Below are positions 1 through 63,768 of a stretch of 64,000 nucleotides of DNA, piece after piece (position 1 is the stretch's first letter; the number at the start of each line of letters is the position of its first letter). The notes under the pieces were generated by a model. It searched no databases, was not told where the DNA came from, and was given only the letters and a program-made list of their open reading frames with translations. The stretch spans positions 84,073 to 148,072 of IMG/VR virus record IMGVR_UViG_3300028914_000061, one strand, 5' to 3'. A program made the translations under genes and the position numbers. Source of the stretch: a virus. Its lineage: Duplodnaviria > Caudoviricetes.

Positions 1-118
1 GTTTTTTAGTTGGATTTATGGCAATGTTCTTGATTGCTTGCAAGATGGATGAACCTACAAAATAGTTTTGGCACGATTATTGTAAGTAATATAGTGTAAC
101 CAATTAAAATTAAATACC

Positions 119-295
119 ATGAGTAAAGTTTATATGAAGGTCACGCTCAACTTGATTGTTGATACTGACATTCCCGAAACGGCAGACATTATGGAAGGTC
201 TTGATTTTGAAGTCACTCCTAATGGTGAGGCTGACGATGACATTGAAGTTTACGATGTGGAAGTGGAAGATTACGAAGTAACCGATTCAAAATAA
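119..295 (+). CDS. Small acidic hypothetical protein
   Basis: ATG after promoter 69; 58 aa. Confidence 0.7.
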   Translation: MSKVYMKVTLNLIVDTDIPETADIMEGLDFEVTPNGEADDDIEVYDVEVEDYEVTDSK

Positions 296-301
296 AAAGC
301 C

Positions 302-496
302 ATGAGACTTAAAATAATAGAATTGATTTGGTCAGCCATTTTGGTAATTGCTTGCATTTCAATTTTGATTTGGCAGATTATCATTAAGTCACCGATTTTC
401 GTAATTGGAATGTTCGCTTTCATGGCAATTATGGCCTTGATTATTCTTGTCCATATCATCAAAGAAATAAAGGAGGAAAAACATGGGAAACAATAG
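302..496 (+). CDS. Small 2-TM membrane protein
   Basis: Two hydrophobic helices. Confidence 0.7.
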   Translation: MRLKIIELIWSAILVIACISILIWQIIIKSPIFVIGMFAFMAIMALIILVHIIKEIKEEKHGKQ

Positions 497-755
497 CCTT
501 TGGATTGTGAAGTTTGCAAGTGAGAAACGGGAGCAGCCGAATTTCCCCAATTTTACGAATCTCAATGCAGCCAAAACGTACTGCAATTCAGTCCTTTCCG
601 ATTACGGCAAGAAAAAGCATTTGGACGGAGGCGAAATTCTCCACGTTGTAAATGGCGAAATCATTTCAAAGGTTGCTGTGGACTACGTTGGATTTGATGA
701 ATTGTATTACAGCGATGTTCACATTCTCCATAAAAAAATCCCATACAAAGGATAA
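483..755 (+). CDS. Hypothetical protein
   Basis: ORF overlapping the upstream stop. Confidence 0.7.
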   Translation: MGNNSLWIVKFASEKREQPNFPNFTNLNAAKTYCNSVLSDYGKKKHLDGGEILHVVNGEIISKVAVDYVGFDELYYSDVHILHKKIPYKG

Positions 756-759
756 TATA

Positions 760-773
760 TACGCAATTGCGTA
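760..773. promoter_or_regulatory. Palindrome TACGCAATTGCGTA, putative protein-binding site
   Basis: 1 of 7 copies; 6 nt before the promoter at 780. Confidence 0.7.
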
Positions 774-830
774 CTACTTTGGCACGATATTTGATTATAA
801 TTAAAGTGAAATCATTAAATAATTAGAATT

Positions 831-1031
831 ATGACTTTTGTAGCAGCCATTCAATTAATTTTATTGTGCATCCAACTAACGTTCTTGGCAGGAACGATTT
901 ACTCAACCACTAAAAAGGGCGAGGAACAAATCAAGAAAGAATTTAAAATGGAAACCCAAAAGTTCAGAAACATTTGCCTATACGGAAACTTGGGTTGCAT
1001 GGCAATCATTTTGTTGCTGAATCTTTTCTAA
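831..1031 (+). CDS. Small 2-TM membrane protein, resembles 44252-44446
   Basis: Own promoter; hydrophobic. Confidence 0.7.
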   Translation: MTFVAAIQLILLCIQLTFLAGTIYSTTKKGEEQIKKEFKMETQKFRNICLYGNLGCMAIILLLNLF

Positions 1032-1061
1032 AAGTTTGGCACGATATTTGATAAAGAAACA

Positions 1062-1203
1062 ATGACGATGTTATCGGGAATGGTAAGTTCGCCCTATGCG
1101 AAGGGAGGTCTTTGGTGAGATTCCAAAGGGTAGCGCTAATCGTCATGCTTGCGCAAGCCCCCCATGTGTCCCTTGGTCGCAATACAAGGGACACCCTTGG
1201 GGA
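1062..1203 (+). ncRNA. Structured RNA or leader with a tRNA-like domain
   Basis: Starts at the predicted +1 of promoter 1037; ATGACGAT/ATCGTCAT closing stem; several perfect hairpins. Confidence 0.55.
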
Positions 1204-1232
1204 ATAGAAAACAACAACAAAAACATAAAACT

Positions 1233-1556
1233 ATGAGAATCAATTTCAACATCAAGCCATACTCCGATTTTACGGGAATTGGCACTAAAAAAGAAGCACT
1301 TGCACGTCTTGAAAGCCGATGGGGACTTCGTGCGGTTCCTAATTGCTTTTCGACTTATGGAGATTTCCAACATCGTGGACTTGACAATGATACCGCTTGG
1401 CTCTACACCATTCAAGTGTATAAGCACGGCAAGCATCGCAAATGCAAGAATTATCATGTTTGGGTCTATCGTGTTCCGATTAAGACTTTGGAAGTTCTTG
1501 GAATCAAGATGAGCCAAATGCGCAACGGAATCAAGATTGAAAAACTCAATAAGTAA
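1233..1556 (+). CDS. Hypothetical basic protein
   Basis: Start moved to the ATG after the A-rich leader. Confidence 0.7.
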   Translation: MRINFNIKPYSDFTGIGTKKEALARLESRWGLRAVPNCFSTYGDFQHRGLDNDTAWLYTIQVYKHGKHRKCKNYHVWVYRVPIKTLEVLGIKMSQMRNGIKIEKLNK

Positions 1557-1655
1557 ACCATGTTGTTTGCAGGGGAGGGACAAAAAAGTTTCTCCCCTTG
1601 CCCATTTTGGCACGATTCTTGTGTATTATTGTAGTGACAATTAAAATTAAAAGCC

Positions 1656-1799
1656 ATGACAAAAGCAGAATGTATTTCAAGAGGTTGCCCGATGCTCATC
1701 AAAAAGAGAGACAAGGTTACGATGTTGCCTTATTGGGTCTGCGGTGTAACCAACCAAGACGTTAAGAAAGTCCATAACTGCGTAAACAAGCCACATTAA
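1656..1799 (+). CDS. Small Cys-containing protein
   Basis: ATG after promoter 1608. Confidence 0.6.
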   Translation: MTKAECISRGCPMLIKKRDKVTMLPYWVCGVTNQDVKKVHNCVNKPH

Positions 1800-1802
1800 A
1801 CC

Positions 1803-1943
1803 ATGAACAAAGAAAGATTTATTGAAATTCTATCCAAGCCGATGAGCGAGGTAATGAATGACCCAACTATCTCCGATGAAGAGTTTTCATTTTGCATGGA
1901 AAACTGCGAAAAAAATATTGACGAAATCGAATTTGACGAATAG
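1803..1943 (+). CDS. Small acidic protein
   Basis: Short ORF filling the unit. Confidence 0.6.
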   Translation: MNKERFIEILSKPMSEVMNDPTISDEEFSFCMENCEKNIDEIEFDE

Positions 1944-1993
1944 TTTGGCATAGATTTTGATTATTATTTTAGTGAACATTAAAACAAAACAAC

Positions 1994-2158
1994 ATGGGAA
2001 CAAAGACTTACAAAGTAAACCGAAAAAAGGCAATCGAACTTGCCATGAATCATAACAATGTGACAAGGGAGGTTGCTGAACGTTACACCGATAGCGAACT
2101 GAAGGAAGTGCTTGCTCATCTTTCGGGCAGATTCTTTAAGATGGAAGCCGATTTCTAA
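1994..2158 (+). CDS. Hypothetical protein
   Basis: ATG after promoter 1946. Confidence 0.6.
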   Translation: MGTKTYKVNRKKAIELAMNHNNVTREVAERYTDSELKEVLAHLSGRFFKMEADF

Positions 2159-2176
2159 CCATTAAAACAATTAGCC

Positions 2177-2482
2177 ATGCAATTCAGCGAATTAAGAGAA
2201 AACATCATCACCAATCTTTGCACCGACATCATCAATAAGCAATTAGCGGCAATGTTAGCCATGAATATTGACATGGAAACTTCGTTTGAAGAAAGCAAGG
2301 AGGAAATTGTAATCTTTACCAATTCCCATGTTGGATTTATCGGTGTTTCTTTCATTGAAGGAAATCTGCGCTTCATCAAAGGCGATGGTACAACCGTGTT
2401 GGCAAAAGATTATATTTCAAACGAATATTATTACGAAACCGTACTTCAAATTTGGTATGCTTTTCGGCACGATAGCAAATAG
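2177..2482 (+). CDS. Hypothetical protein
   Basis: ORF on coding strand. Confidence 0.7.
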   Translation: MQFSELRENIITNLCTDIINKQLAAMLAMNIDMETSFEESKEEIVIFTNSHVGFIGVSFIEGNLRFIKGDGTTVLAKDYISNEYYYETVLQIWYAFRHDSK

Positions 2483-2532
2483 TTTGGCATGATTATTGCT
2501 ATAATTGAAGTGTAACAATTAAAATTATAATT

Positions 2533-2754
2533 ATGGCTACACAATCCGACATTGCGCTGATTAGTTCTAATCCATTTGTCATTAAAAAGGAGCATGGAAC
2601 GAGACCTTCATATTTGAAGTCATTGCCGAATCATTTTACCGATGACATTTCGGAAGCGAGAAAGTTTGCGACTGAAACGGCAGCAAAGAACAATATGCTC
2701 AAAATCACAACCTATTCACTGAATCCAAACCATTATTCAATCATTAGGCTATGA
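2533..2754 (+). CDS. Hypothetical protein
   Basis: Own promoter. Confidence 0.7.
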   Translation: MATQSDIALISSNPFVIKKEHGTRPSYLKSLPNHFTDDISEARKFATETAAKNNMLKITTYSLNPNHYSIIRL

Positions 2755-2945
2755 GCAAAGAAAGAGACTTTAAGGGTGAACTGAAAGCCCTTCTTGAAGA
2801 TGTTGCAAAAAGCGGATGGGAGGCAGCAATCCCCTCATTGATTGCAGAGTGCTTGAAAGACGGAAAGTTTGAAAATATCTCAAATTGGGATTTGTTGGAC
2901 TGCACGGCTTATCAATGCCATAAGTATAAAAAGCAAATAAAATAA
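2751..2945 (+). CDS. Hypothetical protein
   Basis: ATGA overlap. Confidence 0.65.
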   Translation: MSKERDFKGELKALLEDVAKSGWEAAIPSLIAECLKDGKFENISNWDLLDCTAYQCHKYKKQIK

Positions 2946-3059
2946 GTGTTCATATCTTTTGTGTTTTTGGCCGGAAATTTCTTGTAAGTTTCCGACTTTT
3001 TTTTATTACTTTGGCATGGTTTTTGTGTATTATTGTAGTGTATATTAAAACGAATCACC

Positions 3060-3215
3060 ATGAACGACACACAAAAGATTGAAGCAATCAAAAAAGAGAT
3101 TGAAAGCACTCACTTGAATACATTGGAGGATATGGGCGAAATGCTTGATAGCATCATCCGTATTGTCTATGGAGTTGAAAAGACAAAACCATTATTTGAA
3201 AAGAAAGGGATTTGA
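3060..3215 (+). CDS. Hypothetical protein
   Basis: ATG after promoter 3012. Confidence 0.6.
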   Translation: MNDTQKIEAIKKEIESTHLNTLEDMGEMLDSIIRIVYGVEKTKPLFEKKGI

Positions 3216-3356
3216 TTATGGAAATTTTATGTGCTTTTTTGCTTTTGTGTGTTATTGCAATGACAATTACCTGCATTTATGTATCAAACAAAAGTCAAAA
3301 GGAAAATGATGAATTGAGGAAAGAACTCAATGAATTAAAATCTCAAATAGATAGTT

Positions 3357-3635
3357 ATGGTAACGATAGATAGTTTGTTTCACTTGGTAAAGCATTATCA
3401 TTTGGACGATGATGAAAATTGCTTTGACAAGGCGATAGAAATGGCAAGCAACCAACTTTCCGATGTGTTGGAAAAGGAAAGGGAATATCCACCATTTATT
3501 TACTATTTGTGCTTGGAGCAAATGGAGAAGAATCCAAAGTACAAGTTTGGCAAAACATTTCATTCAATGAATGATGAAGAAAAAACTTGTGTATTCAATG
3601 AAACAATTTCAGCATTGAAAGCACTTTTGGCATAG
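3357..3635 (+). CDS. Hypothetical protein
   Basis: Stop lies inside the next promoter. Confidence 0.7.
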   Translation: MVTIDSLFHLVKHYHLDDDENCFDKAIEMASNQLSDVLEKEREYPPFIYYLCLEQMEKNPKYKFGKTFHSMNDEEKTCVFNETISALKALLA

Positions 3636-3692
3636 TTTTTGATTATAATTTGAGTACAAACAAACACATTATTAACTTAAATCTAAATTACA

Positions 3693-4202
3693 ATGAAGAA
3701 AATCTTTTTTGCTATCGCCATTATTTTTGCCACTACACTTGTTGGCTTCGCACAATCAACGGCTATCCATTTTGATAATGGAAAATATGACATGATGCTT
3801 CACCCGAAAAACCCAACGGGTCAAAACATCGAAGTTGTCACTTTCATTGGCTATGATGCAATTTCGCAAACTCGTTCAACGAAGAAAATCGAAGTTGATT
3901 ACGAAGTTATTGATGGCGTTCAATATGCTTTGGAGAACTCAAAAAGAATGAAAAAGTTTGCTACTACTGAACTAATAGGTCTTGGCGTTTGCCTTGCAGG
4001 TGGAGAACTAATGCACTATTCATACAAACAATTTGGCAAGCACCCGAATGACCATTATAAAAATTTAGCCTATGTTGGAGGTGCGGTTGCTATGGCAGGT
4101 GCTTTGACTTGTATTTTAGGCTATATTCCGCTATTGAATGACCATGTTTATGTTACAAACAATGGGATTGGAATACGATACAAGATTAAAAGTTTGAATT
4201 GA
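3693..4202 (+). CDS. Exported/membrane protein
   Basis: Signal peptide ending FAQ; two further hydrophobic segments. Confidence 0.7.
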   Translation: MKKIFFAIAIIFATTLVGFAQSTAIHFDNGKYDMMLHPKNPTGQNIEVVTFIGYDAISQTRSTKKIEVDYEVIDGVQYALENSKRMKKFATTELIGLGVCLAGGELMHYSYKQFGKHPNDHYKNLAYVGGAVAMAGALTCILGYIPLLNDHVYVTNNGIGIRYKIKSLN

Positions 4203-4230
4203 CCCCATGCGAGAATGTAAATATTTGTAA

Positions 4231-4259
4231 AAAAGTCACTTTTCGGAGTGGCTTTTTTC
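4231..4259 (+). terminator. Intrinsic terminator
   Basis: AGTCACTT-TTCG-GAGTGGCT followed by a T run. Confidence 0.75.
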
Positions 4260-4313
4260 ATTTTTGGCATGGTATTTGTATTATATTGAAGTGAACACTA
4301 AACACAAAAGACT

Positions 4314-4619
4314 ATGGCTAATAACATTGAAAATTACCAAAAGTGCCAATGCGGTGCAATAACTTTCTACTTTGAAGATGGAAGTTCAAGCAGTATGCGC
4401 CAACGCACTGCAAAGAAGATGGGAATTGATTTGAGGCACTATAAGAGCCTTAGACCAACTTGGAATTGCAATCATTGTGTTAATCATTGGGGAACTGACA
4501 TCTGCGAATGTGGCAGTGGTGAAAAGGTTGGAAAATGTTCTTGCGGCTCCAATAGACCAATGCAAGAGTTTGGCATAAATTTTGATTCATTTAGCCGTAT
4601 AATTCAAAACTTTTGCTAA
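4314..4619 (+). CDS. Cys-rich, probable Zn-binding protein
   Basis: CQC, CNHC, CEC, CSC. Confidence 0.7.
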   Translation: MANNIENYQKCQCGAITFYFEDGSSSSMRQRTAKKMGIDLRHYKSLRPTWNCNHCVNHWGTDICECGSGEKVGKCSCGSNRPMQEFGINFDSFSRIIQNFC

Positions 4620-4620
4620 C

Positions 4621-5031
4621 ATGGAATTGAACGAGATAAGGAATAAAATGGCTCAACTTTTGGAAGAGCATAAAGCCCTTGAAGAAGAGTTGAAGAACGC
4701 TATGGTGGCTATCATCAATGAGACAGCAGAAGAAAGCCCGAATAAGAAAAAGAGAATAGCCAAGCATATTTTTATTCTTAATGCTTCTGACATCATGGGT
4801 AATCCGTGGAATGTAGAGTTTTACGATTGGGAGGCTTCTGCAAAGGTTGTCTTGGATTATCTTGAATTGAAACCTATCTACGATTGGAAAGCATTGTTGG
4901 AAAAGAAGTTAGAAGAAGCCAAACGTAATGTGGTAGAGTTTAAGAAAATATCATCTTGCATGGGTTACAAAACTACCTATGTAATTCCAATTAGCAAAGA
5001 ATTTGTTGAAAAAATTGTAGCCAAAATGTAA
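4621..5031 (+). CDS. Hypothetical protein
   Basis: ORF on coding strand. Confidence 0.72.
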   Translation: MELNEIRNKMAQLLEEHKALEEELKNAMVAIINETAEESPNKKKRIAKHIFILNASDIMGNPWNVEFYDWEASAKVVLDYLELKPIYDWKALLEKKLEEAKRNVVEFKKISSCMGYKTTYVIPISKEFVEKIVAKM

Positions 5032-5085
5032 TGTTTTGGCACGATTATTGTTTATTATTATAGTGTAATCTAAAAACGCAAAAAA

Positions 5086-5421
5086 ATGATACACGCAACT
5101 TTTAAAACGATTGATGATATAATCAATAATTTTAATTTGGTTGGTGGAATGAGTTTGTCGTTTGGTGATAACAGCAAATTTTCCACTTCCCATTTTGACA
5201 TCAATGCAAATAATGATTCAATTCCATTTAAGGAGGGTTGGATTAAAAACATTAGTCTTTACTATGCGGAGAACGAGGAAACGGGTAAAACTGAACTGCG
5301 AACTGACATCAAAATTGAACTTAAACTATATTGTTCTTGTGCTGAAAGACCTACAATGATAGTCAATAAATCTTGGTTTGATAAAAATGTATCAAACATT
5401 AGTGTTTGGGGCATCAAATGA
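5086..5421 (+). CDS. Hypothetical protein
   Basis: Own promoter. Confidence 0.72.
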   Translation: MIHATFKTIDDIINNFNLVGGMSLSFGDNSKFSTSHFDINANNDSIPFKEGWIKNISLYYAENEETGKTELRTDIKIELKLYCSCAERPTMIVNKSWFDKNVSNISVWGIK

Positions 5422-5478
5422 TTTATTTTGGCATGATTTTTGTGTATTATTTTCAACGTAAATTAAAACCAAAATACA

Positions 5479-5790
5479 ATGAGCAAAGTAAGAGAATTAG
5501 AAGATAATGTTTCGCAAGACAATTTGTTTACCATTGGTAAGCAACTTATTCAGTGTATTGGGTTTATGGATTGGTGCTATTGTCAATACAACACCGATAA
5601 AAGAACAACCGAGGATTTAGTCCTGCACAATGAAAATGCAAGGTACGATAGTCCCGATAGATGGTGGAGGTATCGCTTTTTCCGCCTTTGCCGACTGCCT
5701 TTCAAGGTCAAATACAAGTGGGTTGGCTATGACCACGTTTTCAAAGTAAGACCCGAAATTTGGATTAGGCTTTATCACATCAAAGACTGA
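5479..5790 (+). CDS. Hypothetical protein
   Basis: Own promoter. Confidence 0.72.
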   Translation: MSKVRELEDNVSQDNLFTIGKQLIQCIGFMDWCYCQYNTDKRTTEDLVLHNENARYDSPDRWWRYRFFRLCRLPFKVKYKWVGYDHVFKVRPEIWIRLYHIKD

Positions 5791-5841
5791 TTTGGCACGA
5801 TTCTTGTAGTATATTGTAGTGACAATTAAAATTAAAATACC

Positions 5842-6048
5842 ATGAAAGGAATAGACATTATTAATTATATCAAAGAGAACAACCTTGAAGATGCAGAGGT
5901 AAGTGTGACCGCTACAATCTACCGACAAGGCGACCACGATTGCAGAACAACAACAAATGTTTCCGTTATGGAATCGTCAGTCTATGACGATGAACAAAGG
6001 AAATATGTTCCTGCCATTGATTTCTATGTGGATGATGAATTGTATTGA
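5842..6048 (+). CDS. Hypothetical acidic protein
   Basis: Own promoter. Confidence 0.72.
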   Translation: MKGIDIINYIKENNLEDAEVSVTATIYRQGDHDCRTTTNVSVMESSVYDDEQRKYVPAIDFYVDDELY

Positions 6049-6100
6049 GTTTGGCACAAAATTTGTAGTAATTGAAGTGTAACCTTAAAAACATCGAACT

Positions 6101-6373
6101 ATGAAAAAGACAGCAAGGATTTCAAGAATCAACGCAATGTTGGATAGTCATTTCAAGTCCAATCATGGCGCATGGTGGGTTTCCAACAGCAACGGCTATA
6201 AGGAAATGATTGAATTGCACCGAGGTCAAGGTGGCGACAAAATCAATCCCGTTTGGATAGCCAAATACATTTTCCGCCACGAAGCAAGTGTAAACATCAT
6301 TCACTTTGCAGGTTGTTGCATGGTCTATACGAGAGAGAGCGTAAAACTTTACGATAGAGCCGTGAAAAAGTAA
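6101..6373 (+). CDS. Hypothetical protein
   Basis: Own promoter. Confidence 0.72.
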   Translation: MKKTARISRINAMLDSHFKSNHGAWWVSNSNGYKEMIELHRGQGGDKINPVWIAKYIFRHEASVNIIHFAGCCMVYTRESVKLYDRAVKK

Positions 6374-6426
6374 AAATTGGCACGATTTTTGATTATAATT
6401 GTAGTGTAACCTAAAAACATCGAACT

Positions 6427-6852
6427 ATGAGAAACGAAGTCGTAACCATCCAAGTCCCTAATGTTGGAACTATCAACGTTTCCTCCACAATGAGAGGCGA
6501 ATGTAAGGGAACTAAAATGTTTGACCTGCGCCACTACGTTTATAGGCTGCGCATTTGGAGCGAACACGATAAAATGACCTGCAATTTCCATGACTGCGCC
6601 TTCAATTATCCGAGAGTTAAGAAACTCAATAGGGAGGCTTTGCTCAACGCTTTAGATTGTGTTTTGTCCGATATTTCCATGTATCTTAACGATGAAATCA
6701 AATGGAATTATGACGATGAGGATGCAGCCCTTATGAGAATTGCCGAAAAGGGATGCAAGCGTGAATCCGAGGCATTTTCAAAAGTCGTTGGCGGTGACGA
6801 TAATCTTTGGACTGCCATAGAATTTTTGACAGATTACATCAACAACCATTGA
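6427..6852 (+). CDS. Hypothetical protein
   Basis: Own promoter. Confidence 0.75.
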   Translation: MRNEVVTIQVPNVGTINVSSTMRGECKGTKMFDLRHYVYRLRIWSEHDKMTCNFHDCAFNYPRVKKLNREALLNALDCVLSDISMYLNDEIKWNYDDEDAALMRIAEKGCKRESEAFSKVVGGDDNLWTAIEFLTDYINNH

Positions 6853-6902
6853 TTTTGGCATAGTTTTTGTTTATATTTGTAGTGTAAATAAAACTCAAAA
6901 TT

Positions 6903-7073
6903 ATAGATGAAAAAGAAAAATTAAACGCAATTAGAACTGAAATAGACAAGTGGTTTTCCGATGAAGAAAAGTCAGCAGTTGACACCTTGAAAAGAATCTC
7001 CAACATTCTCAAAAGGAATGATTTCGATATGGATGAATACTGCGAACAACTTCACGATTCAGTAAATGTGTAA
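6903..7073 (+). CDS. Hypothetical protein with ATA at the start position (possible pseudogene)
   Basis: 56 open codons after promoter 6856; leader reads AAAATT-ATA instead of AAAATT-ATG. Confidence 0.45.
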   Translation: MDEKEKLNAIRTEIDKWFSDEEKSAVDTLKRISNILKRNDFDMDEYCEQLHDSVNV

Positions 7074-7075
7074 CA

Positions 7076-7255
7076 ATGAAAAAAGAAGAAATCATCAAAA
7101 TGGCTAAAAGCCTTGCGGAGCGTCATTTGATTGACCCCTATATCCCCGATGTGCTAACTGATGGCTCAACGTATGCGGAGGAATTTCTTGCAAAGTTGTC
7201 AGTAGCCGAAACCGAAGATGGATTGCTGAAAAGAATCCAAGAGGTAATGAGTTAG
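7076..7255 (+). CDS. Hypothetical protein
   Basis: 59-aa ORF. Confidence 0.6.
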   Translation: MKKEEIIKMAKSLAERHLIDPYIPDVLTDGSTYAEEFLAKLSVAETEDGLLKRIQEVMS

Positions 7256-7385
7256 AGAATTATCATAGTCGAGTTTTTAATATGCGGTTGGGTGTGGAAA
7301 CTTTCTCCTTTCAATTCCACACCCACGCTGTAAGGTTTGGCACGATTATTGCTTATATTGTAGTGAACAATTAAAATTAAATACT

Positions 7386-7625
7386 ATGGGTTGGGTAAAA
7401 AAAGAAACCATTAAAGATGAAAAACTTTTGAAAGAATTAAAAGAAGTTTTTCCCGACAAATTTTCCATTTTAAGAGGTGTTACAAGAAGTTGCAGCAGTT
7501 CAGTCTATGAGTATCTTACGGACTATATTCGTGACTATTACGATGTAACGTTGGCTCAATGTGACCGAGTTTCCAAGCGGATTGCTCAACATTACGAAAT
7601 CAAGCAGTTTTACCATAAACACTAA
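7386..7625 (+). CDS. Hypothetical protein
   Basis: Own promoter. Confidence 0.72.
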   Translation: MGWVKKETIKDEKLLKELKEVFPDKFSILRGVTRSCSSSVYEYLTDYIRDYYDVTLAQCDRVSKRIAQHYEIKQFYHKH

Positions 7626-7659
7626 AAAAACGGCTGTAAGTATTCCTATCAAATAAATG

Positions 7660-7691
7660 AAAAAGCGGTGCAACAATGTACCGCTTTTTTT
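7660..7691. terminator. Intrinsic terminator, possibly bidirectional
   Basis: A5-GCGGTGCA-ACAA-TGTACCGC-T7. Confidence 0.75.
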
Positions 7692-7717
7692 GTGCATAAG
7701 ATTCACAACAATACACC

Positions 7718-7732
7718 ACAATATCCGTGCCA
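7718..7732 (-). promoter_or_regulatory. Antisense-oriented copy of the sigma54-like element
   Basis: Minus strand reads TGGCACGGATATTGT-GGTGTATTGTTGTGAA, back-to-back with the + copy at 7759. Confidence 0.7.
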
Positions 7733-7810
7733 AAGTGGTGAAAATCTTGAAAAAAGTTTGGCATGGTTTTTGATGTATATTGTAATGCAAACCAATTAAA
7801 ATTATAATCC

Positions 7811-8074
7811 ATGAGCAAAACCACCGATGAACTTATCCAAGATAGGATAGACAGCGCAAATAAAGATTTTAGAGAAAACGAAACAAGCATGATTGCCGAA
7901 ATCTACGACCTTCAAACAATGGTAGTTTGTATTGTAATTGAATGGGGAGATTGGAAGCATGAGCATGGCTATGCTGATTATATCATGGAACAGCATGGAT
8001 TCAAGAAATTAAAGGAAGATGTGACGGAGGAAGATGGAAGCGATTGTTATTCCTCAATTCATTATTATAAATGA
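7811..8074 (+). CDS. Hypothetical acidic protein
   Basis: Own promoter. Confidence 0.72.
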   Translation: MSKTTDELIQDRIDSANKDFRENETSMIAEIYDLQTMVVCIVIEWGDWKHEHGYADYIMEQHGFKKLKEDVTEEDGSDCYSSIHYYK

Positions 8075-8129
8075 AAAGTTTGGCATAATTTTTGATATAA
8101 TAATAGAGTAATCAATTAAAATTAAAGAT

Positions 8130-8489
8130 ATGAAAAACTTTATTCAAAATGAACTTGTTTGCCTTCGTGCGTTAGAGCCGATTGGCTGCGATAGATACGA
8201 GGAACTTTCAAAGGCTATTCAATGGCTTGACGAAAACACCTTGAAAGAGGGAGAGAAAAAAGAAGAGGTTAATAAGCCCCAATACGCCCATACTACAATC
8301 CGTTGGAAAGATGACAATAGCGAAGAGGAAACCATCATTGCCATTGGTTGCCCTTACATTGAAAAGTACGATGAGCAAATTCTTTTCTACTGCGAAAACC
8401 AAGAAGATTTTGAAAACTTGAAGCACTACGAAAACGGACAAGATTTCTACATTGATGGCTGCACCATGTTCACTGAAACATTGGATTAG
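8130..8489 (+). CDS. Hypothetical acidic protein
   Basis: Own promoter. Confidence 0.75.
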   Translation: MKNFIQNELVCLRALEPIGCDRYEELSKAIQWLDENTLKEGEKKEEVNKPQYAHTTIRWKDDNSEEETIIAIGCPYIEKYDEQILFYCENQEDFENLKHYENGQDFYIDGCTMFTETLD

Positions 8490-8541
8490 TTTGGCACGAA
8501 ATTTGATGTAGTAAGAGAGTAACCAATTAAAATTAAAAACT

Positions 8542-8991
8542 ATGACTATTGAACTTCAAAATCAATTAAAGCCTTTTGAGATTTTCATGGAAAAAATGGA
8601 AGTCATTGTTGAGGCTATTAAGAATAATGAAGAGAATATCAAGAATGGTTGGGGAGTTGAAAGATTTGATTTGAGAGACGATGCAATCGGCATGGTTGGT
8701 AGTATTCCAACAACGATTAAAGAATATGCTGAACTTTGGGATTATGTTCAAGAAAGATACAAAGAATATCTTGCAGGTTGCGAAAATCCGCTTATGCCAA
8801 ATGAAATGTTCTTTGATGTCTATTGGAATGACCCCGAAGCAAATAGGGCAGAATACGATGATTTGACCCTTTGGGTTTTCTTTGACTACGAATATGGCAT
8901 CTACTATTTGGAAGATGATGAAATCTTGGAAAAGATTAAAAAGAGAGACGAAGAATTAGCAAAGGCTGAAAATGCCACAAGAGGCTACTAA
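8542..8991 (+). CDS. Hypothetical acidic protein
   Basis: Own promoter. Confidence 0.75.
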   Translation: MTIELQNQLKPFEIFMEKMEVIVEAIKNNEENIKNGWGVERFDLRDDAIGMVGSIPTTIKEYAELWDYVQERYKEYLAGCENPLMPNEMFFDVYWNDPEANRAEYDDLTLWVFFDYEYGIYYLEDDEILEKIKKRDEELAKAENATRGY

Positions 8992-8995
8992 TATA

Positions 8996-9009
8996 TACGC
9001 AAATGCGTA
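8996..9009. promoter_or_regulatory. Palindrome TACGCAAATGCGTA
   Basis: 6 nt before the promoter at 9016. Confidence 0.7.
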
Positions 9010-9065
9010 CTGATTTGGCACGATATTTGTAAGATAGTAAGCATAACAAATTAAAATTAAAATCC

Positions 9066-9494
9066 ATGAATCAATCCGAGTACAATAGAATTAACGAAGG
9101 CAACGTTCTCATTAGTGGTATTATGAGAGATATTCACAGCATGGAGGGCAAGTTGCGCAATAAGATGGAAACATCTATTTTCGACATGGTTACTGCTATG
9201 GGCGGTAGGCTTGAAGTTGATGTTGACAATGACGATATTCCTATCGTAACTTACGATGGCGGCAGACACCCCGAATATAACGCCACGCCTTGCGCCCAAG
9301 TCCAAGTTATTGAGCCATTGGAAAAGAACGGCTTCAAACGTTTTCGTGTGGACATGGACGTTTGCGAAGAGTACGAATCGGATAGATTTGACATTGAATC
9401 AGTCGAAGTCATTTTTGACTATGTTTATTGGAAGTTTGACGATTACTGCGAACAATTAGGTCTTGCTGTGGAAGTTATCAAAGAGTTTACCTAA
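9066..9494 (+). CDS. Hypothetical acidic protein
   Basis: Own promoter. Confidence 0.75.
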   Translation: MNQSEYNRINEGNVLISGIMRDIHSMEGKLRNKMETSIFDMVTAMGGRLEVDVDNDDIPIVTYDGGRHPEYNATPCAQVQVIEPLEKNGFKRFRVDMDVCEEYESDRFDIESVEVIFDYVYWKFDDYCEQLGLAVEVIKEFT

Positions 9495-9558
9495 TAGACC
9501 AACTTTGGCACGATTTTTGTTAGTATTATAGTTGTCTAACCAATTAAAAACACGCACT

Positions 9559-9912
9559 ATGAATTACATTACCAATTCAAAAGAAGTCCCCTTCACGCTC
9601 AATGACTTTTACAATCACACGCATTTTTCCCTTCGTTCAAGCGGAAACGGCTATAAGATTTGCCATGTATTGCTCAACGACTACAATACAGACCAACAAG
9701 GTATTACTACAATGTCAGTAACGATTTGGGAAAGCCTACGCCAACGTGGAAGGCATACTTTAACCATCGAAGAGATTTCAAGCAAAATCAACATGAGGGA
9801 TTTGCTTATGGAAATTTCGGCAAAGTTAGCCCACAATGAATTTGAAGATGGGGATTGCTACATTGAAGTAGATATGCCCACATCAAGCGGAAAAAGAAGT
9901 TTCACATTCTAA
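9559..9912 (+). CDS. Hypothetical protein
   Basis: ATG after promoter 9506. Confidence 0.72.
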   Translation: MNYITNSKEVPFTLNDFYNHTHFSLRSSGNGYKICHVLLNDYNTDQQGITTMSVTIWESLRQRGRHTLTIEEISSKINMRDLLMEISAKLAHNEFEDGDCYIEVDMPTSSGKRSFTF

Positions 9913-9964
9913 CATTTTGGCACGATTCTTGTACTAATAGACATAACCATTAAAAATTAAAATT

Positions 9965-10273
9965 ATGGAAAAAGCAAAAATCCAAGAAATCAAAGACAAG
10001 TTAGGTAAGTTTATCAAAGTTGAGCCTATCCTTTCACCCCGAAGTGGTGAAGCAGTCCGTAATCAGTACGAAGTTCGTTTTGAAAACGGCAACCTTTTTC
10101 AGTCATTCGATACCTTGATTGGTATTCGGACAGGCGGCAAACTCTATCTTACGAGAAGCCATGAATACTCAACCACCACATCAAAGTATTGCCGTGAATG
10201 GTGCGGTTATAGTGGGGAAGAGCGTAGAAAAGGGCTTGAAAGCGGAAAATTCGTTTACCTCGTAGAAGATTAG
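9965..10273 (+). CDS. Hypothetical phage protein
   Basis: Own promoter. Confidence 0.75.
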   Translation: MEKAKIQEIKDKLGKFIKVEPILSPRSGEAVRNQYEVRFENGNLFQSFDTLIGIRTGGKLYLTRSHEYSTTTSKYCREWCGYSGEERRKGLESGKFVYLVED

Positions 10274-10306
10274 CCCACTTTGGCACGATATTTGTAAGTA
10301 ATAAAT

Positions 10307-10710
10307 CGAAGTCTAACATCTAAATCGCTAAATAGTATGAGACCGAGAGACAAGCCCAAAGCAAACTAAAACCAAGTAATAATCCGGAATTTGTAATTAT
10401 ATAAGAGCATCTTTGAATATGAAAAGCATTAGAGGTCAGCCGTAAATCGGTAATATATATTTGATATTTTTGATAATTTAATAGTGATAGAAACCCCAAT
10501 AAAAGAGAGCGGTTTATAGGGTAAAGTTCGGGATACGTTACAAAGCCGCAATAGAAACAAAAAGTCCATGACCTTGGCAAGAGCATCGCCCAAATAGAAA
10601 TTATAATATATCTAATAGGAAAGACCCTTCGCAGTGGCAAGGCAAAATCCCTTCGCAGTCGCACGGCAAAATTACTATTAGATGGCAATCGGACATAAGA
10701 CCGATATATT
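10307..10710 (+). ncRNA. Candidate ~400-nt ncRNA upstream of tRNA-Lys
   Basis: Own promoter (10281); no + strand ORF of 60 aa or more; stem ATCTAATAG/CTATTAGAT encloses a 24-nt tandem repeat. Confidence 0.5.
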
Positions 10711-10712
10711 TT

Positions 10713-10785
10713 GCGTCCGTAACTCAGTCGGTAGAGTACCACACTTTTAATGTGGGAGTCGTGGGTTCGAGTCCCACCGAGCGCA
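10713..10785 (+). tRNA. tRNA-Lys(UUU)
   Basis: Cloverleaf; anticodon arm CCACA-CTTTTAA-TGTGG; T arm GTGGG-TTCGAGT-CCCAC. Confidence 0.93.
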
Positions 10786-10805
10786 CACACTTAAAAACTC
10801 AAACT

Positions 10806-11072
10806 ATGGAAAAGAAATACGTCATTATCAAAAATTGCAATTATGATTTCAACATCGAAATCAAAACTATTGCAGTAACTGACAGCATGGACAAGGCAAA
10901 GGAAGTCCTGCAAGAAGAAATCGTAAAAGAAAAAGAAGAACAAAAGGTAGGTAGCCTCAACTACGACACCGAGGAAGTCACGGAAACGAGTTATGCCGCC
11001 TACAATGAAGGCTACGAAGCAACCGATGGGGTACGAATCTTCATCAGCGAAGCCGAATACAAAAATTCATAG
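10806..11072 (+). CDS. Hypothetical protein
   Basis: ATG after tRNA-Lys. Confidence 0.7.
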   Translation: MEKKYVIIKNCNYDFNIEIKTIAVTDSMDKAKEVLQEEIVKEKEEQKVGSLNYDTEEVTETSYAAYNEGYEATDGVRIFISEAEYKNS

Positions 11073-11095
11073 ATGTTTAATTTTTAATTGGTGCG

Positions 11096-11131
11096 AAAGT
11101 GTGTCTTACTGAAAAGTTTGGCACACTTTTT
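11096..11131 (+). terminator. Terminator-like hairpin whose 3' arm is the promoter element
   Basis: AAAGTGTGTC...GGCACACTTTTT. Confidence 0.55.
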
Positions 11132-11167
11132 GTTATATATTGTAGTGAACATTAAATTAAAATTGAA

Positions 11168-11698
11168 ATGATTGTTATTCACATTGATTCGATGGAAGAT
11201 ACAGCAAGACTGAAGGCTGTTTATGAAGGGATTGATTGTACTTTATTGTATAATCCTACAAGGGATGATGTTGTGCATGAATTAGCCAAAAATGACGATG
11301 ATACAATTCTTTTGTTGGGTCATGGTAGCCGTAGCGGATTGTTCAGTAAGGATTGGCGAGGTTATGTATTTGATTGGAGAATTGCAAAGGAATACTGCAA
11401 AGATAGAAAGATAATTGGAATTTGGTGTTATGCCTCCGAGTTTGGCGACAGCATGGGCTTACATGGATTCTTTACCTCAATGTTCATTTCCAATCTTGGG
11501 GAAGCATTGAGTTTAGGTTTTCCTAAAAACACTAATGAGGATATTTTGGATGAAGTTACGTTTTTCTGCAATATGATTAACAAGTTCATCAAAGAAAATA
11601 CTCCTATGGAAAATTGGGTTTCCATCTTGCAGGAAGTCTGCCATAAAGAAAAAGATTTTGTTAGATTTAATTACGAAGCCTTGTCATACTTTGAATAG
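11168..11698 (+). CDS. Putative caspase/gingipain-fold (clan CD) peptidase-like protein
   Basis: Hydrophobic strand + GHG, then IGIWC: His-Gly...Cys dyad pattern (inference). Confidence 0.5.
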   Translation: MIVIHIDSMEDTARLKAVYEGIDCTLLYNPTRDDVVHELAKNDDDTILLLGHGSRSGLFSKDWRGYVFDWRIAKEYCKDRKIIGIWCYASEFGDSMGLHGFFTSMFISNLGEALSLGFPKNTNEDILDEVTFFCNMINKFIKENTPMENWVSILQEVCHKEKDFVRFNYEALSYFE

Positions 11699-11752
11699 TT
11701 TGGCATGGTTTTTGTGTATATTGTAGTCGCTAACCAATTAAAATTATAATCC

Positions 11753-12395: not shown

Positions 12396-12403
12396 TTAAA
12401 ATT

Positions 12404-52316: not shown

Positions 52317-52366
52317 AATATAAAGTTTTAAAATTTACAATTCATAAATCAAAAATCGTGCCAAAC

Positions 52367-54631: not shown

Positions 54632-54684
54632 TGTATTAAAATTTTAAGTTCTATCAAACTATAACAAATATCGTGCCAAACTTT

Positions 54685-58055: not shown

Positions 58056-58110
58056 AGTAATTTTTTTTTAAGTTGTTACCGTTTTCCTATCAAAAACCGT
58101 GCCAAACTTT

Positions 58111-60849: not shown

Positions 60850-62048
60850 TTGTATAGTTTTGTTAAAACAAATCTTATTGCGCAATCAATAGCACCACTT
60901 GGGCTTTCAACTTCTTTAACCTCTTGGTATCCCATTCTGTTTACAAATGTCAAACCATCATTATCACGTGTTCTTGCATACGGAATATAAACAGTCTTAT
61001 TTGTTTCAGAGTCAACCATAGGAGTTGTACCGATTTCAACTCCGTATATGTCACGAATCCATTTAATTGCTGAATCTTGAGGTATTCTAAGAACATCTTT
61101 TTCATCAACAACATAATCATCAAACACTACTTGATGGCTATCACCTGAGTAGAATCCATATATATCATACAAGTCACAAGCAGCAAATGGAGGTCCAAAT
61201 TCAAATCCATTTTCATACAATAACTTACAATTGCCATATGAACAATAATCAGGATGCTCAGCAAGAACTACTTCCCATTCGTTTTGAAAGTCAAGAAGAA
61301 GATTTTGTCTTTTTAATCCTTTAAGGACATAGTAGCGTTCAGTAACATCATCAACTACAAAATGTTCTTTATTTGTCTTATGCCTGATAAGTTGTCCTTT
61401 CTTAAAAATTGGTGCATATCCTACATGTACATATTCACCTTGTTTGACTATTGGCATTGTTGTTCCGTCTTCAAAAACATACTTTGTTTTCTTAATGTCA
61501 ACAATTTTAATAGGATTTCCAGAATTAAAATAACCAGTATTCTTAACTTTGATTATCTCGCCAATCTTAAAATTAGGTGTATCAACAATAACGGCCATAT
61601 TATTGCCATCCCAAACAAATCCTTCTTCTCTCAAAGAATTATCAAGCAATTCCCTTTCCTTTTTATCGGCATAGTGAAAAGTTGTTAGGTCAAAAAAAGC
61701 CTTTTTTTCACCTTTGAATGAATAACATTCGGTTTTGTTTATGAAAATAGCAATAAAACCCTTTGAATTTGAAACATAATCGCCTTTCTTGAACAACTTT
61801 GTTTGCCAATAATCCCATCTCATTTCGTCATCAGGATAAATCATAACCTTTCCATGGTTACAATCTTTTACAAGTCCAAAATTACCGTTGAAAGTCATGT
61901 GTCTTTTCTCACCTTTTTCATCGGTAAAACTTGTGATAACATCACCTTCAGTATTTATGCGCTCAAGAATACATTCTCCACATATTGGGCTATATAACTT
62001 AGTCCCAATGGGCATATTTGTAAAAATACGTTTGAAATCAATATTCAT
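60846..62048 (-). CDS. Multidomain hypothetical protein
   Basis: 400 aa; internal FK.G repeats; diverged ETAKLL-like C-terminal domain. Confidence 0.82.
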   Translation of the reverse strand: MNIDFKRIFTNMPIGTKLYSPICGECILERINTEGDVITSFTDEKGEKRHMTFNGNFGLVKDCNHGKVMIYPDDEMRWDYWQTKLFKKGDYVSNSKGFIAIFINKTECYSFKGEKKAFFDLTTFHYADKKERELLDNSLREEGFVWDGNNMAVIVDTPNFKIGEIIKVKNTGYFNSGNPIKIVDIKKTKYVFEDGTTMPIVKQGEYVHVGYAPIFKKGQLIRHKTNKEHFVVDDVTERYYVLKGLKRQNLLLDFQNEWEVVLAEHPDYCSYGNCKLLYENGFEFGPPFAACDLYDIYGFYSGDSHQVVFDDYVVDEKDVLRIPQDSAIKWIRDIYGVEIGTTPMVDSETNKTVYIPYARTRDNDGLTFVNRMGYQEVKEVESPSGAIDCAIRFVLTKLYK

Positions 62049-62238
62049 CTTCTTTTCTCTCTATTATTGCGCCATCTTGAATACATGAGTAATCACCAAA
62101 AACGGTTTCAACATGTTTAATGGTGATATATTCATCATCCATATAGGCTTTATATAATTTGATTGCCTTTTCTATAGAGTCGGCAACCACAAGGTGTTCA
62201 TCAATTCTAAACACCTTTGTCAATCTCCACTTTTTCAT
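62038..62238 (-). CDS. Hypothetical protein
   Basis: Tiled ORF. Confidence 0.65.
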   Translation of the reverse strand: MKKWRLTKVFRIDEHLVVADSIEKAIKLYKAYMDDEYITIKHVETVFGDYSCIQDGAIIERKEDEY

Positions 62239-62243
62239 GTCTA

Positions 62244-62582
62244 TTATTCTTTTTTGAACTTATTGTCCATAAGCATTGATGTTAAGTGATTGGCATAATG
62301 AATAGACAAACTCATTGAATCAATGATGTCTTCATCATTATAGCAACTACTTAATCTCTTACAAAATATCTTCAGGGCTGCTTTATTTCTAAAGTCTTCC
62401 CAATAAGATACTTTGCCATCATCAACGTCAGCCAAATCCCAAAAGTAATTGAGTTTTGCAGACCTTTCTTCTCCACGCTCATTGATATAACTTACATAGT
62501 CATTTTCTGTTCTTTGAGTGCTACCCCCACTGTAAGTGATGACTTCAATGATTTCGCCTGTTTTTCTAATCTGTTTCTTCAT
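62244..62582 (-). CDS. Hypothetical protein
   Basis: Start moved to MKKQIR. Confidence 0.68.
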   Translation of the reverse strand: MKKQIRKTGEIIEVITYSGGSTQRTENDYVSYINERGEERSAKLNYFWDLADVDDGKVSYWEDFRNKAALKIFCKRLSSCYNDEDIIDSMSLSIHYANHLTSMLMDNKFKKE

Positions 62583-62910
62583 TTTTCGTAAACACAAAAT
62601 AACTATCTTTCTTTGTTTCGAAATAAGGCTTCTTGAAGTACTTAACGTCCCATCCATAAGCCCTGTATGTGTCTTCCACATCAAGCCAGTGGTTCTTGAA
62701 GATTTCGTTTCTTTCGATAACTTCTGCGTTGTTCTTGTCGCTAACTGATTTTTCCAAAATTCTGATAACGATTTCTTCTTGCTTTACAACAGCAGATTTC
62801 TTGGCTTCATTCCATTTTTCTTGAATAAGTTCATTGAAGGCTTCAATGACAAAATCAGGGAATTCAACCTTTTGCACTTTAATTTCTTCAGGTCTAATCG
62901 GTTCTACCAT
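62566..62910 (-). CDS. Hypothetical phage protein
   Basis: PDFVIEAFNELI...WLDVE..YR..GW.V.Y. Confidence 0.75.
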   Translation of the reverse strand: MVEPIRPEEIKVQKVEFPDFVIEAFNELIQEKWNEAKKSAVVKQEEIVIRILEKSVSDKNNAEVIERNEIFKNHWLDVEDTYRAYGWDVKYFKKPYFETKKDSYFVFTKNEETD

Positions 62911-62921
62911 AATAATATTAT

Positions 62922-63323
62922 TTATTTTTTACTTATAATTTCTTTCATTTCGTCAGTAATTGGCATCCACCATTTTACATGGGTCCTGTTGTATATTACC
63001 CAACGCCCATCATGAAATATGTTATGCCATACAGCGTGTTCATCGCAATCAAGCATTACAATGTATTCGCCGGCTTCTGTAGGATATTCACCTTCTTTTG
63101 GATTACGTGGGTTTTCCACCACATTCCAAGGAAGTGATTCAAGTATTTTCTTTCTTGAAGGATAATGAACATTTTCATACCAAGATTGGGTCATTCCGCC
63201 ACCAACCTTACAGCATTCAAAACGGTTTATAGCGCCATAGCCATCCAATCGGCCATCTTCATCATACTTCAATTCAAAGTTAGCACCCTCTTTGAGTTTT
63301 TCTAAAATCTCTTTTGCTTCCAT
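62922..63323 (-). CDS. Hypothetical protein
   Basis: Tiled ORF. Confidence 0.72.
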   Translation of the reverse strand: MEAKEILEKLKEGANFELKYDEDGRLDGYGAINRFECCKVGGGMTQSWYENVHYPSRKKILESLPWNVVENPRNPKEGEYPTEAGEYIVMLDCDEHAVWHNIFHDGRWVIYNRTHVKWWMPITDEMKEIISKK

Positions 63324-63425
63324 TATAGCATCGCAATAATAGGGTTAATGTACTCAGTAATCAGTTCAGCGTTAGCAACGGCCCACTTGCAAATAGGGTC
63401 GAAGAAGAAACACATCTTGAAAAAA

Positions 63426-63716
63426 TTAATCCAATTCATTTTCTTTTTCTTTTTTAGTTAAACGTTCTTTTTCAGTATCTTTTTTCCATAATATGATACA
63501 AATTCCAATTATAATAAAAAATGCAGTAGCACCAATTCCCCAAGCAACACTTTGAAGTACATATCCAAAGACAACACCACACAGCATAAGTACAAACCAA
63601 ATAAAGTAGGCAAATAGTTTATCTACTTTTTTGTCATCAAGTTCACCGTGACTGCATACAACAGGAATTATGTGAATTAAACCCATAGCTTGTTGAATTA
63701 AGTTTAAATTACTCAT
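63426..63716 (-). CDS. 2-TM membrane protein
   Basis: Own promoter. Confidence 0.7.
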   Translation of the reverse strand: MSNLNLIQQAMGLIHIIPVVCSHGELDDKKVDKLFAYFIWFVLMLCGVVFGYVLQSVAWGIGATAFFIIIGICIILWKKDTEKERLTKKEKENELD

Positions 63717-63768
63717 TTAATTTTATTTTTGCTCATTTGTATCACTAACAAAAACCGTGCCAAACTAA

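Follow-up and report, generated by a model that had tools for sequence, protein, structure and literature searches.

The 64-kb window analyzed here makes up the final part of a 148-kb viral contig (IMG/VR record IMGVR_UViG_3300028914_000061, positions 84,073 to 148,072 of that record; coordinates below are those of the window unless the contig is named), and it carries many copies of a short repeat shaped like the -24/-12 core promoter of sigma-54 (RpoN). The contig, which is 41% complete by CheckV, is a fragment of a T4-like jumbo phage of about 350 kb from rumen or gut samples, and its genes include those for a T4-type portal (gp20), a gp23-type capsid protein, terminase, a ClpB-like chaperone, a helicase, and an amidase. 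The window holds 6 tRNA genes, and a 7-kb piece of it had no match to cultured phages by blastn. An original prediction, made from the letters of the window, had read the repeats as sigma-54-type promoters that mostly lack the canonical C at -12 and had proposed that they are served by the host RpoN holoenzyme or by a phage RpoN-like factor, possibly without an activator. Our analysis partly supports this interpretation.

A pattern search for TGGCAY-N5-TTGH found 55 matches in the window, 39 on the plus strand and 16 on the minus strand, compared to 1.41 on average and at most 5 in dinucleotide-preserving shuffles. The spacing between the TGGCAY and TTG boxes was the same in every window copy, so that both the predicted strand counts and the predicted invariant spacing held up. 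Across the whole contig there are 65 such sites, 62 of them at 81-148 kb and 3 before tRNA genes at 56-58 kb. In the sigma-54 consensus, conservation is highest at the letters TGGCA-N6-TTG, and the distance between the two boxes is one helical turn, which is not the case in -35/-10 promoters. A position weight matrix (PWM) built on the contig sites reads aGTTTGGCAYGRTTTTTGW; conservation extends beyond the letters searched for to T(-1), G(+6), and the T-run, and upstream of the motif no position from -25 to -5 is conserved. When any base was allowed at -12, the 66 contig sites had T in 33 cases, A in 25, C in 7, and G in 1, and the C expected of a sigma-54 promoter is present in only 7 of the 65 sites (11%). 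In the window, TTGC ends only the four copies that had been named beforehand (2485, 7338, 12013, and 12938). The 12 nt past the motif, which form the -11 to +1 stretch, are 78% A+T compared to 65% for the genome. The AT-rich stretch and leader that had been described downstream are present, but they are looser than had been implied: an RGTG box lies 13-14 nt past the motif in 26/65 sites, a AATTAAAA leader is found in 23/65, and the full A[AC]CAATTAAAA occurs in 13/65.

The position of the sites relative to genes is equally regular. An ATG-started open reading frame (ORF) of at least 30 amino acids (aa) lies on the same strand within 110 nt of 56/65 sites, the ATG falls 45-54 nt past the motif start in 43/65, and for about half of the sites the previous stop codon is at most 11 nt away. 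Sites that lack a nearby ORF precede tRNAs, a second tandem promoter (17166/17245 and 21665/21750), or ORF-less stretches (6856, 10281, and 24037). As predicted, the sites are co-oriented with the next gene in all but one case, the sole opposed site being 7718-7732 on the minus strand. Since the ATG is only 8-11 nt past the motif at 12381 and 49888, these two are doubtful as promoters, and the match at 35012-35026 on the minus strand, which is without the flanking consensus, may have arisen by chance. Outside the window, sigma-54-type sites stand 17-28 nt before tRNA genes (contig 56091, 57269, and 58208); given this placement, the tRNAs would be transcribed from sigma-54-type promoters, and because one site is 17 nt before its tRNA gene, the distance to its transcription start site (TSS) is capped at 17 nt there.

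Other gene sets stand behind other motifs. CTATTTAT, which is T4-late-like, precedes portal, capsid, terminase, and other large genes (contig 1-81000), and a TTTGTATAAT-type box stands ahead of replication-type genes, among them those of the helicase, AAA, and ClpB types. A phage sigma-70-family gene (21980-22876) lies behind the tandem sites 21665 and 21750. From this arrangement we infer that the three promoter classes would form a cascade, with the sigma-54-type class first or early.

The promoter array is also found in related phages. A motif scan of IMG/VR led to large relatives, among them G001 (345 kb, 93% complete), G003 (303 kb), and G004, whose capsid proteins are 85-90% identical to that of the contig, and the relatives carry 19-72 motif copies each. 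In a further relative, G002, 45/72 copies end in the canonical TTGC, and its consensus, TTGGCACG-N4-TTGCA, is without the T-run. When promoters of this phage are paired with their orthologues in G003, T becomes C at -12 three times and A becomes T once, with the TGGCA and TTG boxes unchanged; judging from these alignments, the -12 position in this phage lineage is "not G." Together, the consensus letters, spacing, gene geometry, and relatives support reading the repeats as sigma-54-type -24/-12 core promoters. Their coordinates are given in Table 1.

Table 1. Sigma-54-type sites and associated features in the window
Feature	Position	Strand	-12 base	Remarks
Sigma-54-type core promoter	69-83	+	T	ATG 50 nt past motif start
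Sigma-54-type core promoter	780-794	+	A	14-bp palindrome just upstream
Sigma-54-type core promoter	1037-1051	+	A	then only a short ORF; RNA-library contig 981-1807 spans site
Sigma-54-type core promoter	1608-1622	+	T	
Sigma-54-type core promoter	1946-1960	+	A	
Sigma-54-type core promoter	2485-2499	+	C	canonical
Sigma-54-type core promoter	3012-3026	+	T	C in G003 orthologue
Sigma-54-type core promoter	3628-3642	+	A	
Sigma-54-type core promoter	4265-4279	+	T	C in G003 orthologue
Sigma-54-type core promoter	4571-4585	+	A	
Sigma-54-type core promoter	5037-5051	+	T	
Sigma-54-type core promoter	5429-5443	+	T	15-mer identical to Salmonella pspG promoter
Sigma-54-type core promoter	5793-5807	+	T	
Sigma-54-type core promoter	6052-6066	+	T	
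Sigma-54-type core promoter	6378-6392	+	A	
Sigma-54-type core promoter	6856-6870	+	T	no ORF of at least 30 aa within 110 nt
Sigma-54-type core promoter	7338-7352	+	C	canonical
Sigma-54-type core promoter	7718-7732	-		opposed to neighbours; back to back with 7759; runs into terminator-like hairpin
Sigma-54-type core promoter	7759-7773	+	A	
Sigma-54-type core promoter	8081-8095	+	A	
Sigma-54-type core promoter	8492-8506	+	A	
Sigma-54-type core promoter	9016-9030	+	T	palindrome just upstream
Sigma-54-type core promoter	9506-9520	+	T	
Sigma-54-type core promoter	9918-9932	+	T	C in G003 orthologue
Sigma-54-type core promoter	10281-10295	+	T	no ORF follows; tRNA-Lys (10713) 430 nt downstream
Sigma-54-type core promoter	11119-11133	+	T	
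Sigma-54-type core promoter	11701-11715	+	T	
Sigma-54-type core promoter	12013-12027	+	C	canonical
Motif match, doubtful promoter	12381-12395	+	A	ATG only 8 nt past motif
Sigma-54-type core promoter	12938-12952	+	C	canonical; palindrome upstream
Sigma-54-type core promoter	14110-14124	+	T	
Sigma-54-type core promoter	14650-14664	+	T	
Sigma-54-type core promoter	15637-15651	+	T	
Sigma-54-type core promoter	16140-16154	+	T	
Sigma-54-type core promoter	16524-16538	+	A	
Tandem pair, upstream member	17166-17180	+	T	
Tandem pair, downstream member	17245-17259	+	A	
Tandem pair before phage sigma-factor operon, upstream member	21665-21679	+	T	
Tandem pair before phage sigma-factor operon, downstream member	21750-21764	+	A	heads 57-aa ORF, then phage sigma gene
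Phage sigma-70-family factor, regions 2 and 4, RpoD/SigB-like	21980-22876	+		Pfam, PHROG 351, and PDB matches
Sigma-54-type core promoter, end of plus-strand block	24037-24051	+	A	no ORF follows
Sigma-54-type core promoter, heads minus-strand operon	27947-27961	-	T	
Sigma-54-type core promoter	28432-28446	-	T	
Sigma-54-type core promoter	33181-33195	-	T	
Sigma-54-type core promoter	33583-33597	-	A	
Sigma-54-type core promoter	34398-34412	-	A	identical in G003
Weak match, possibly chance	35012-35026	-		without flanking consensus
Sigma-54-type core promoter	39098-39112	-	T	identical in G003
Sigma-54-type core promoter	41424-41438	-	A	
Sigma-54-type core promoter, before radical-SAM gene	44234-44248	-	A	
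Sigma-54-type core promoter	47943-47957	-	A	
Motif match, doubtful spacing	49888-49902	-	T	ATG only 11 nt past motif
Sigma-54-type core promoter	52349-52363	-	A	
Sigma-54-type core promoter	54664-54678	-	T	
Sigma-54-type core promoter	58090-58104	-	A	
Sigma-54-type core promoter	63748-63762	-	T	
14-bp palindrome copies	about 760-779, 8996-9015, 12918-12937, 24017-24036; contig 82166			

Neither the contig nor five relatives, including the 93%-complete G001, had an accepted match to the Sigma54_DBD and Sigma54_CBD profiles, and a six-frame search of the phage sequences found no RpoN-box peptide. The phage sequences likewise contain no bacterial enhancer-binding protein (bEBP) by profile search, the PF00158 matches being ClpB-like proteins and one classic-clade AAA protein. 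The absence of rpoN and bEBP genes that had been reported for the window can now be extended to the whole contig and to a 93%-complete relative. We also rejected two possible activators: a 371-aa phage AAA protein is of the classic clade (Rpt/BCS1-like) and is without GAFTGA, and a GAFTGA-like match in G003 is a chance occurrence at the C-terminal end of a 600-aa protein.

Several features of the phage bear on its host. Shine-Dalgarno (SD) sequences precede 16/222 phage genes compared to 26 in a coding control, and the leaders are A-rich. Non-use of SD sequences is typical of Bacteroidota. The absence of SD sequences is also noted in PMC9723704. The closest cellular homologues of the phage ClpB are from Bacteroidota, with an 83% identical copy in a Bacteroidales metagenome-assembled genome (MAG) bin, and parts of the window are present in bovine and sheep gut RNA libraries plus one unlabelled run (three runs). 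Since the phage does not use SD sequences, has a Bacteroidota-like ClpB with a copy in the MAG, and occurs in gut RNA libraries, its host is probably a member of the Bacteroidales. In the Bacteroidales MAG G006 (contigs C165 and C29; CALAVA010000010.1), several contigs belong to a closely related phage that shares the promoter and the downstream box; either they were binned there in error or they hint at the host.

We sampled 41 genomes across the order of the MAG (Bacteroidales) and found one copy of rpoN in each (41/41). The MAG RpoN keeps Region I, the helix-turn-helix (HTH), the STISRV helix (Escherichia coli R383), and the RpoN box; a substitution of R383 was rejected as the cause of the -12 preference because the residue is conserved. 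Flavobacterium psychrophilum has TSS-mapped sigma-54 promoters before groES-groEL, dnaK, grpE-dnaJ, htpG, lon, and clpB (PMC9723704), and groES and grpE of Bacteroides thetaiotaomicron are sigma-54 dependent according to work cited in PMC12316311. When the 220 nt before groES, clpB, and dnaK were searched for TGGYA-N6-nTG with the -12 base left free (chance expectation of about 0.03 sites per locus), predicted sites lay on the coding strand at 64/89 loci. These were found at 17/29 groES loci (72-92 nt to the gene; 0 on the opposite strand), 19/30 clpB loci (mostly 41-125 nt; 2 opposite), and 28/30 dnaK loci (61-116 nt; 2 opposite). For groES, a strict TTG search had given 1/29 loci, and relaxing the -14 base raised this to 17/29. 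The -12 base of the 64 predicted host sites is A in 46 (72%), T in 9 (14%), C in 7 (11%), and G in 2. Since C accounts for 11% of both these sites and the phage sites, the missing -12 C appears to be a trait of the probable host lineage and by itself would be no pointer to activator independence. A strict TTGGCAY-N5-TTGCW scan of five Bacteroidales genomes gave few matches, and most of those in the MAG were on the related-phage contigs. With the leading T, there are ~60 sites in the contig compared to 3-23 per genome in five Bacteroidales genomes of 2.1-2.6 Mb (reversed-pattern controls, 1-17), and a replicating phage would therefore vastly outnumber the sigma-54 promoters of its host.

Sigma-54 is the one bacterial sigma factor that is unable to open DNA without an ATPase activator, and here the host and phage promoters differ. 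In the 145 nt upstream of the host promoters, TGTCA/TGACA repeats reach 13.8 per kb for groES compared to a background of 2.9, 10.0 per kb for clpB compared to a background of 2.0, and 13.5 per kb for dnaK. Upstream of the phage promoters the same repeats are not enriched (2.9 per kb compared to 2.8 genome-wide), and no upstream k-mer is common to them. With no conserved upstream element, repeat enrichment, or common k-mer, the absence of an enhancer at the phage promoters is supported. Host-type enhancer clusters in the phage genomes were rejected, as they numbered 5-6 compared to 1.6-2.4 in shuffles (maximum 5-7) and none was associated with the arrays.

Two bEBPs are conserved in the Bacteroidales (examined in genomes L219, L220, L222, and L253-L257). 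The first is PspF-like (AAA+ plus HTH_8, no sensor domain), and in many of the sampled genomes its gene lies 2.5-3 kb upstream of groES, in the order bEBP-LptE-unknown-SecG-groES. The second, of 382-388 aa, consists of REC, a sigma-54 AAA+ domain (loop GSFTSA), and the lid, and then ends without an HTH; its orthologues are present in 33/41 genomes (64-77% identity, frames of 385-428 aa), and in one genome its gene is divergent from clpB with a sigma-54-type site in between. The TGTCA/TGACA repeats before groES, clpB, and dnaK look like a common enhancer of these two proteins. A truncated bEBP, DctD250, activates sigma-54 promoters from solution genome-wide in Salmonella (PMC3844500). Because a bEBP without a DNA-binding domain can act in this way, we propose the REC-AAA+ protein as the likeliest candidate activator of the phage promoters.

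Together, these findings suggest that the phage repeats are probably sigma-54-type core promoters that a Bacteroidales host reads with its RpoN holoenzyme, that copy the core of the host heat-shock promoters without their enhancers, and that are fired by a host activator. The phage would have taken over the core of the groES, clpB, and dnaK promoters, including A or T at -12, and would have left out the TGTCA/TGACA repeats. Since it encodes neither RpoN nor a bEBP, open complexes would have to form through a host activator that acts in the absence of an enhancer; the first candidate would be the REC-AAA+ protein without a DNA-binding domain, and the second the PspF-like protein encoded near groES, acting from solution. 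Transcription would start about 12 nt past the motif and would serve many small non-structural genes and the phage sigma-70-family factor, presumably early in infection. More tentatively, and with rather more doubt than confidence, we suggest that at least 65 units (probably >100 in the full genome) run on host sigma-54 through enhancer-less promoters, fired by a host activator that does not bind DNA or by none, and that the phage is thereby plugged into the heat-shock circuit, outnumbering and possibly titrating the host promoters.

Several points weigh against this explanation. The sigma-54 holoenzyme (E-sigma54) tends to be scarce, and a bulk early programme would not be expected to rely on it. 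The -12 preference differs between phage (T, 51%) and host (A, 72%), and the host chaperone sites are themselves predictions. The assignment to a rumen or gut member of the Bacteroidales is indirect, and the RNA-library matches are assembled contigs without 5' ends or strand, for which DNA carry-over is possible. The evidence for the activation step is likewise indirect, since the host promoters have enhancers and the phage promoters have none. Finally, because the contig is ~41% complete and the best relative 93%, a divergent phage factor could lie outside these sequences or escape recognition.

One alternative is that host E-sigma54 fires without any activator: a -12 base other than C, together with the A+T richness from -11 to +1, would allow the closed complex to open spontaneously and would make the promoters constitutive. 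The -12 C, which is conserved in 96% of bacterial sigma-54 promoters, helps restrain basal transcription, and the low-level in vivo bypass sites of Region I-deleted sigma-54 are without a strictly conserved C (PMC4551910). The 78% A+T past the motif and the lack of both an enhancer and a bEBP in the phage would also fit. However, bypass in E. coli in vivo required deletion of Region I and remained low-level (PMC4551910), whereas the MAG RpoN keeps this region. The argument is weakened because the host uses the same -12 base together with enhancers: its chaperone promoters lack the -12 C and yet keep enhancer-like repeats and neighbouring bEBP genes. Likewise, pspA and pspG are strictly PspF dependent. 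Both are known sigma-54 promoters with a TTGT ending, and bound sigma-54 promoters without -12 C in Salmonella include pspA (TTGT), pspG (TTGT), and STM0649.S (TTGA) (PMC3844500). In our comparison, the Salmonella pspG 15-mer is identical to five phage copies. The hint of activator independence that the original prediction saw in the non-C bases is not supported by these comparisons, and we consider activator-free transcription unlikely.

Another possibility is that a phage-encoded factor reads the motif, either a very divergent sigma-54-like protein or some other specificity factor, encoded in the unsequenced part or unrecognisable. In its favour, the contig covers only about 41% of the genome, Pfam often misses phage sigma factors because of their divergence, and most genes here are without a family match. 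Against this, a reader of the exact bacterial consensus should retain the conserved DNA-binding domain, and neither Sigma54_DBD nor Sigma54_CBD was found in the 93%-complete relative or four others; the best match, a 10-bit Sigma54_DBD match in G001, was rejected because the protein belongs to unrelated PHROGs. The six-frame search gave no RpoN-box motif either, and the repeats follow the -12 preference of the host lineage. Nothing supports the phage RpoN-like factor that had been offered as an alternative, and we regard a phage-encoded reader as improbable.

A sigma-70-family holoenzyme might also read the motif, through host sigma-A and a -7-like TTTTTG box or through a phage RpoD-like sigma factor, in which case the likeness to sigma-54 would be coincidental. 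Although RRTTTTTG partly resembles the Bacteroidota -7 box TAnnTTTG and the phage has its own sigma-70-family factor, the first T of the -7 box is almost never present, its A is found in only 60% of sites, and there is no -33 TTTG 19-21 nt upstream, where -25 to -5 is unconserved. A search for the strict Bacteroidota sigma-A pattern (TAnnTTTG with TTTG 19-21 nt upstream) gave 2 window matches compared to 2.8 expected. TTTTTG also fails as a -7 box because G002 does not keep the T-run, retaining only TTGC and not TTTG. With the boxes one helical turn apart, the phage sigma gene itself behind the motif, and other genes carrying the distinct TTTGTATAAT-type motif, a sigma-70 reader is very improbable. 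That the sites are not promoters but trap or park host E-sigma54, as a heat-shock sink or as roadblocks between genes, is hardly credible: E-sigma54 does form stable closed complexes and can repress (PMC4551910), and the contig holds more sites (about 60) than a whole host-like genome (3-23; controls 1-17), but strict co-orientation and a fixed 45-54 nt to the ATG would be required of a promoter but not of a sink, and no other promoter type is enriched within the window.

Some further observations concern individual sites. Five promoters have a 14-bp palindrome (TACGCAAATGCGTA or TACGCAATTGCGTA) whose end lies ~4 nt ahead of the -24 box; it may be an operator for a dimeric regulator. The opposed site at 7718-7732 would yield a short transcript ending at a bidirectional terminator-like hairpin (7640-7732, minus strand), and this transcript may be a small antisense RNA. 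Contigs of three public runs fuse different promoter cassettes (1053 to 7313, 1636 to 7366, and 89 to 14686; window 1-20000), reflecting either gene cassettes shuffled at the repeated promoters in related strains or assembly collapse. No structured RNA was found past the promoter at 1037, where the fold was no better than that of shuffles (z = +0.76), and an Rfam search of the window returned only tRNAs. Beyond the jumbo phages, ~11.5-kb linear contigs with perfect 308-nt inverted terminal repeats (ITRs; L019:1-11774, IMGVR_UViG_3300045988_000945, and about 15 similar ones) have two tandem inward-facing TTTGGCACGGTTTTTGT sites in each repeat, and by their layout they look like a small ITR-bearing element with the same promoter type.

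Textbook phages start on the housekeeping sigma factor of the host or bring their own polymerase. If true, a sigma-54-based phage programme would be a new takeover strategy, working by activation from solution or by bypass, and would tie infection to the stress response of gut and rumen Bacteroidales. Mechanistic studies and synthetic biology would also gain dozens of natural sigma-54 promoters that have no enhancer, and the A rather than C at -12 in the predicted Bacteroidales promoters bears on the -12 fork-junction lock outside Proteobacteria. The original prediction knew of no described phage regulon of this kind, and our literature search likewise turned up no published one; a 2026 preprint proposes that a phage AAA+ protein may act on E-sigma54. 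What our sequence comparisons newly contribute is a probable host-lineage explanation of the -12 base, the apparent lack of a phage enhancer, and a candidate activator without DNA binding.

Among known phages, Pseudomonas phage YuA has one sigma-54-like promoter, for which the host factor is required (Ceyssens 2008, as cited in bioRxiv 10.1101/2023.10.13.562163). In YuA this is one such promoter among sigma-70-type and phage-specific ones, whereas here there are 65 in 148 kb, or roughly one for each gene or operon in the non-structural arms. The array also resembles in layout the early arrays of T4-like phages, in which many small genes each have their own strong host-read promoter and with which this phage shares the T4-like backbone (gp20, gp23, and terminase); T4-like phages also place a separate late motif before the structural genes, as CTATTTAT is placed here. 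T4 early promoters are of the sigma-70 type and need no activator, and in this they are unlike the sigma-54-type promoters described here.

There are also likenesses to cellular promoters. The -24/-12 core is common to the phage and to the chaperone sigma-54 promoters of Bacteroidota (motif SM4 of F. psychrophilum, PMC9723704). With the sampled Bacteroidales chaperone promoters the phage shares the TTGGCA box and the rarity of C at -12, and both would be read by the same single-copy host RpoN. They differ in that the host promoters are 60-115 nt away from the gene, with TGTCA/TGACA repeats at 10-14 per kb compared to 2-3 in the background, whereas the phage promoters lie 45-54 nt from the ATG without repeats, abut the previous gene, and favour T over the A of the host at -12. 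The enterobacterial pspA and pspG promoters end in TTGT as phage copies do, and the Bacteroidales bEBP near groES has the layout of PspF, with AAA+ plus HTH and no sensor domain. The psp promoters use upstream PspF-binding enhancers; the phage promoters, unlike them, are without one. Enhancer-independent bEBPs are known in Helicobacter pylori (FlgR) and Chlamydia (CtcC). The Bacteroidales REC-AAA+ protein, which ends after the AAA+ lid and has no HTH, resembles FlgR, CtcC, and the truncated DctD250 (PMC3844500).

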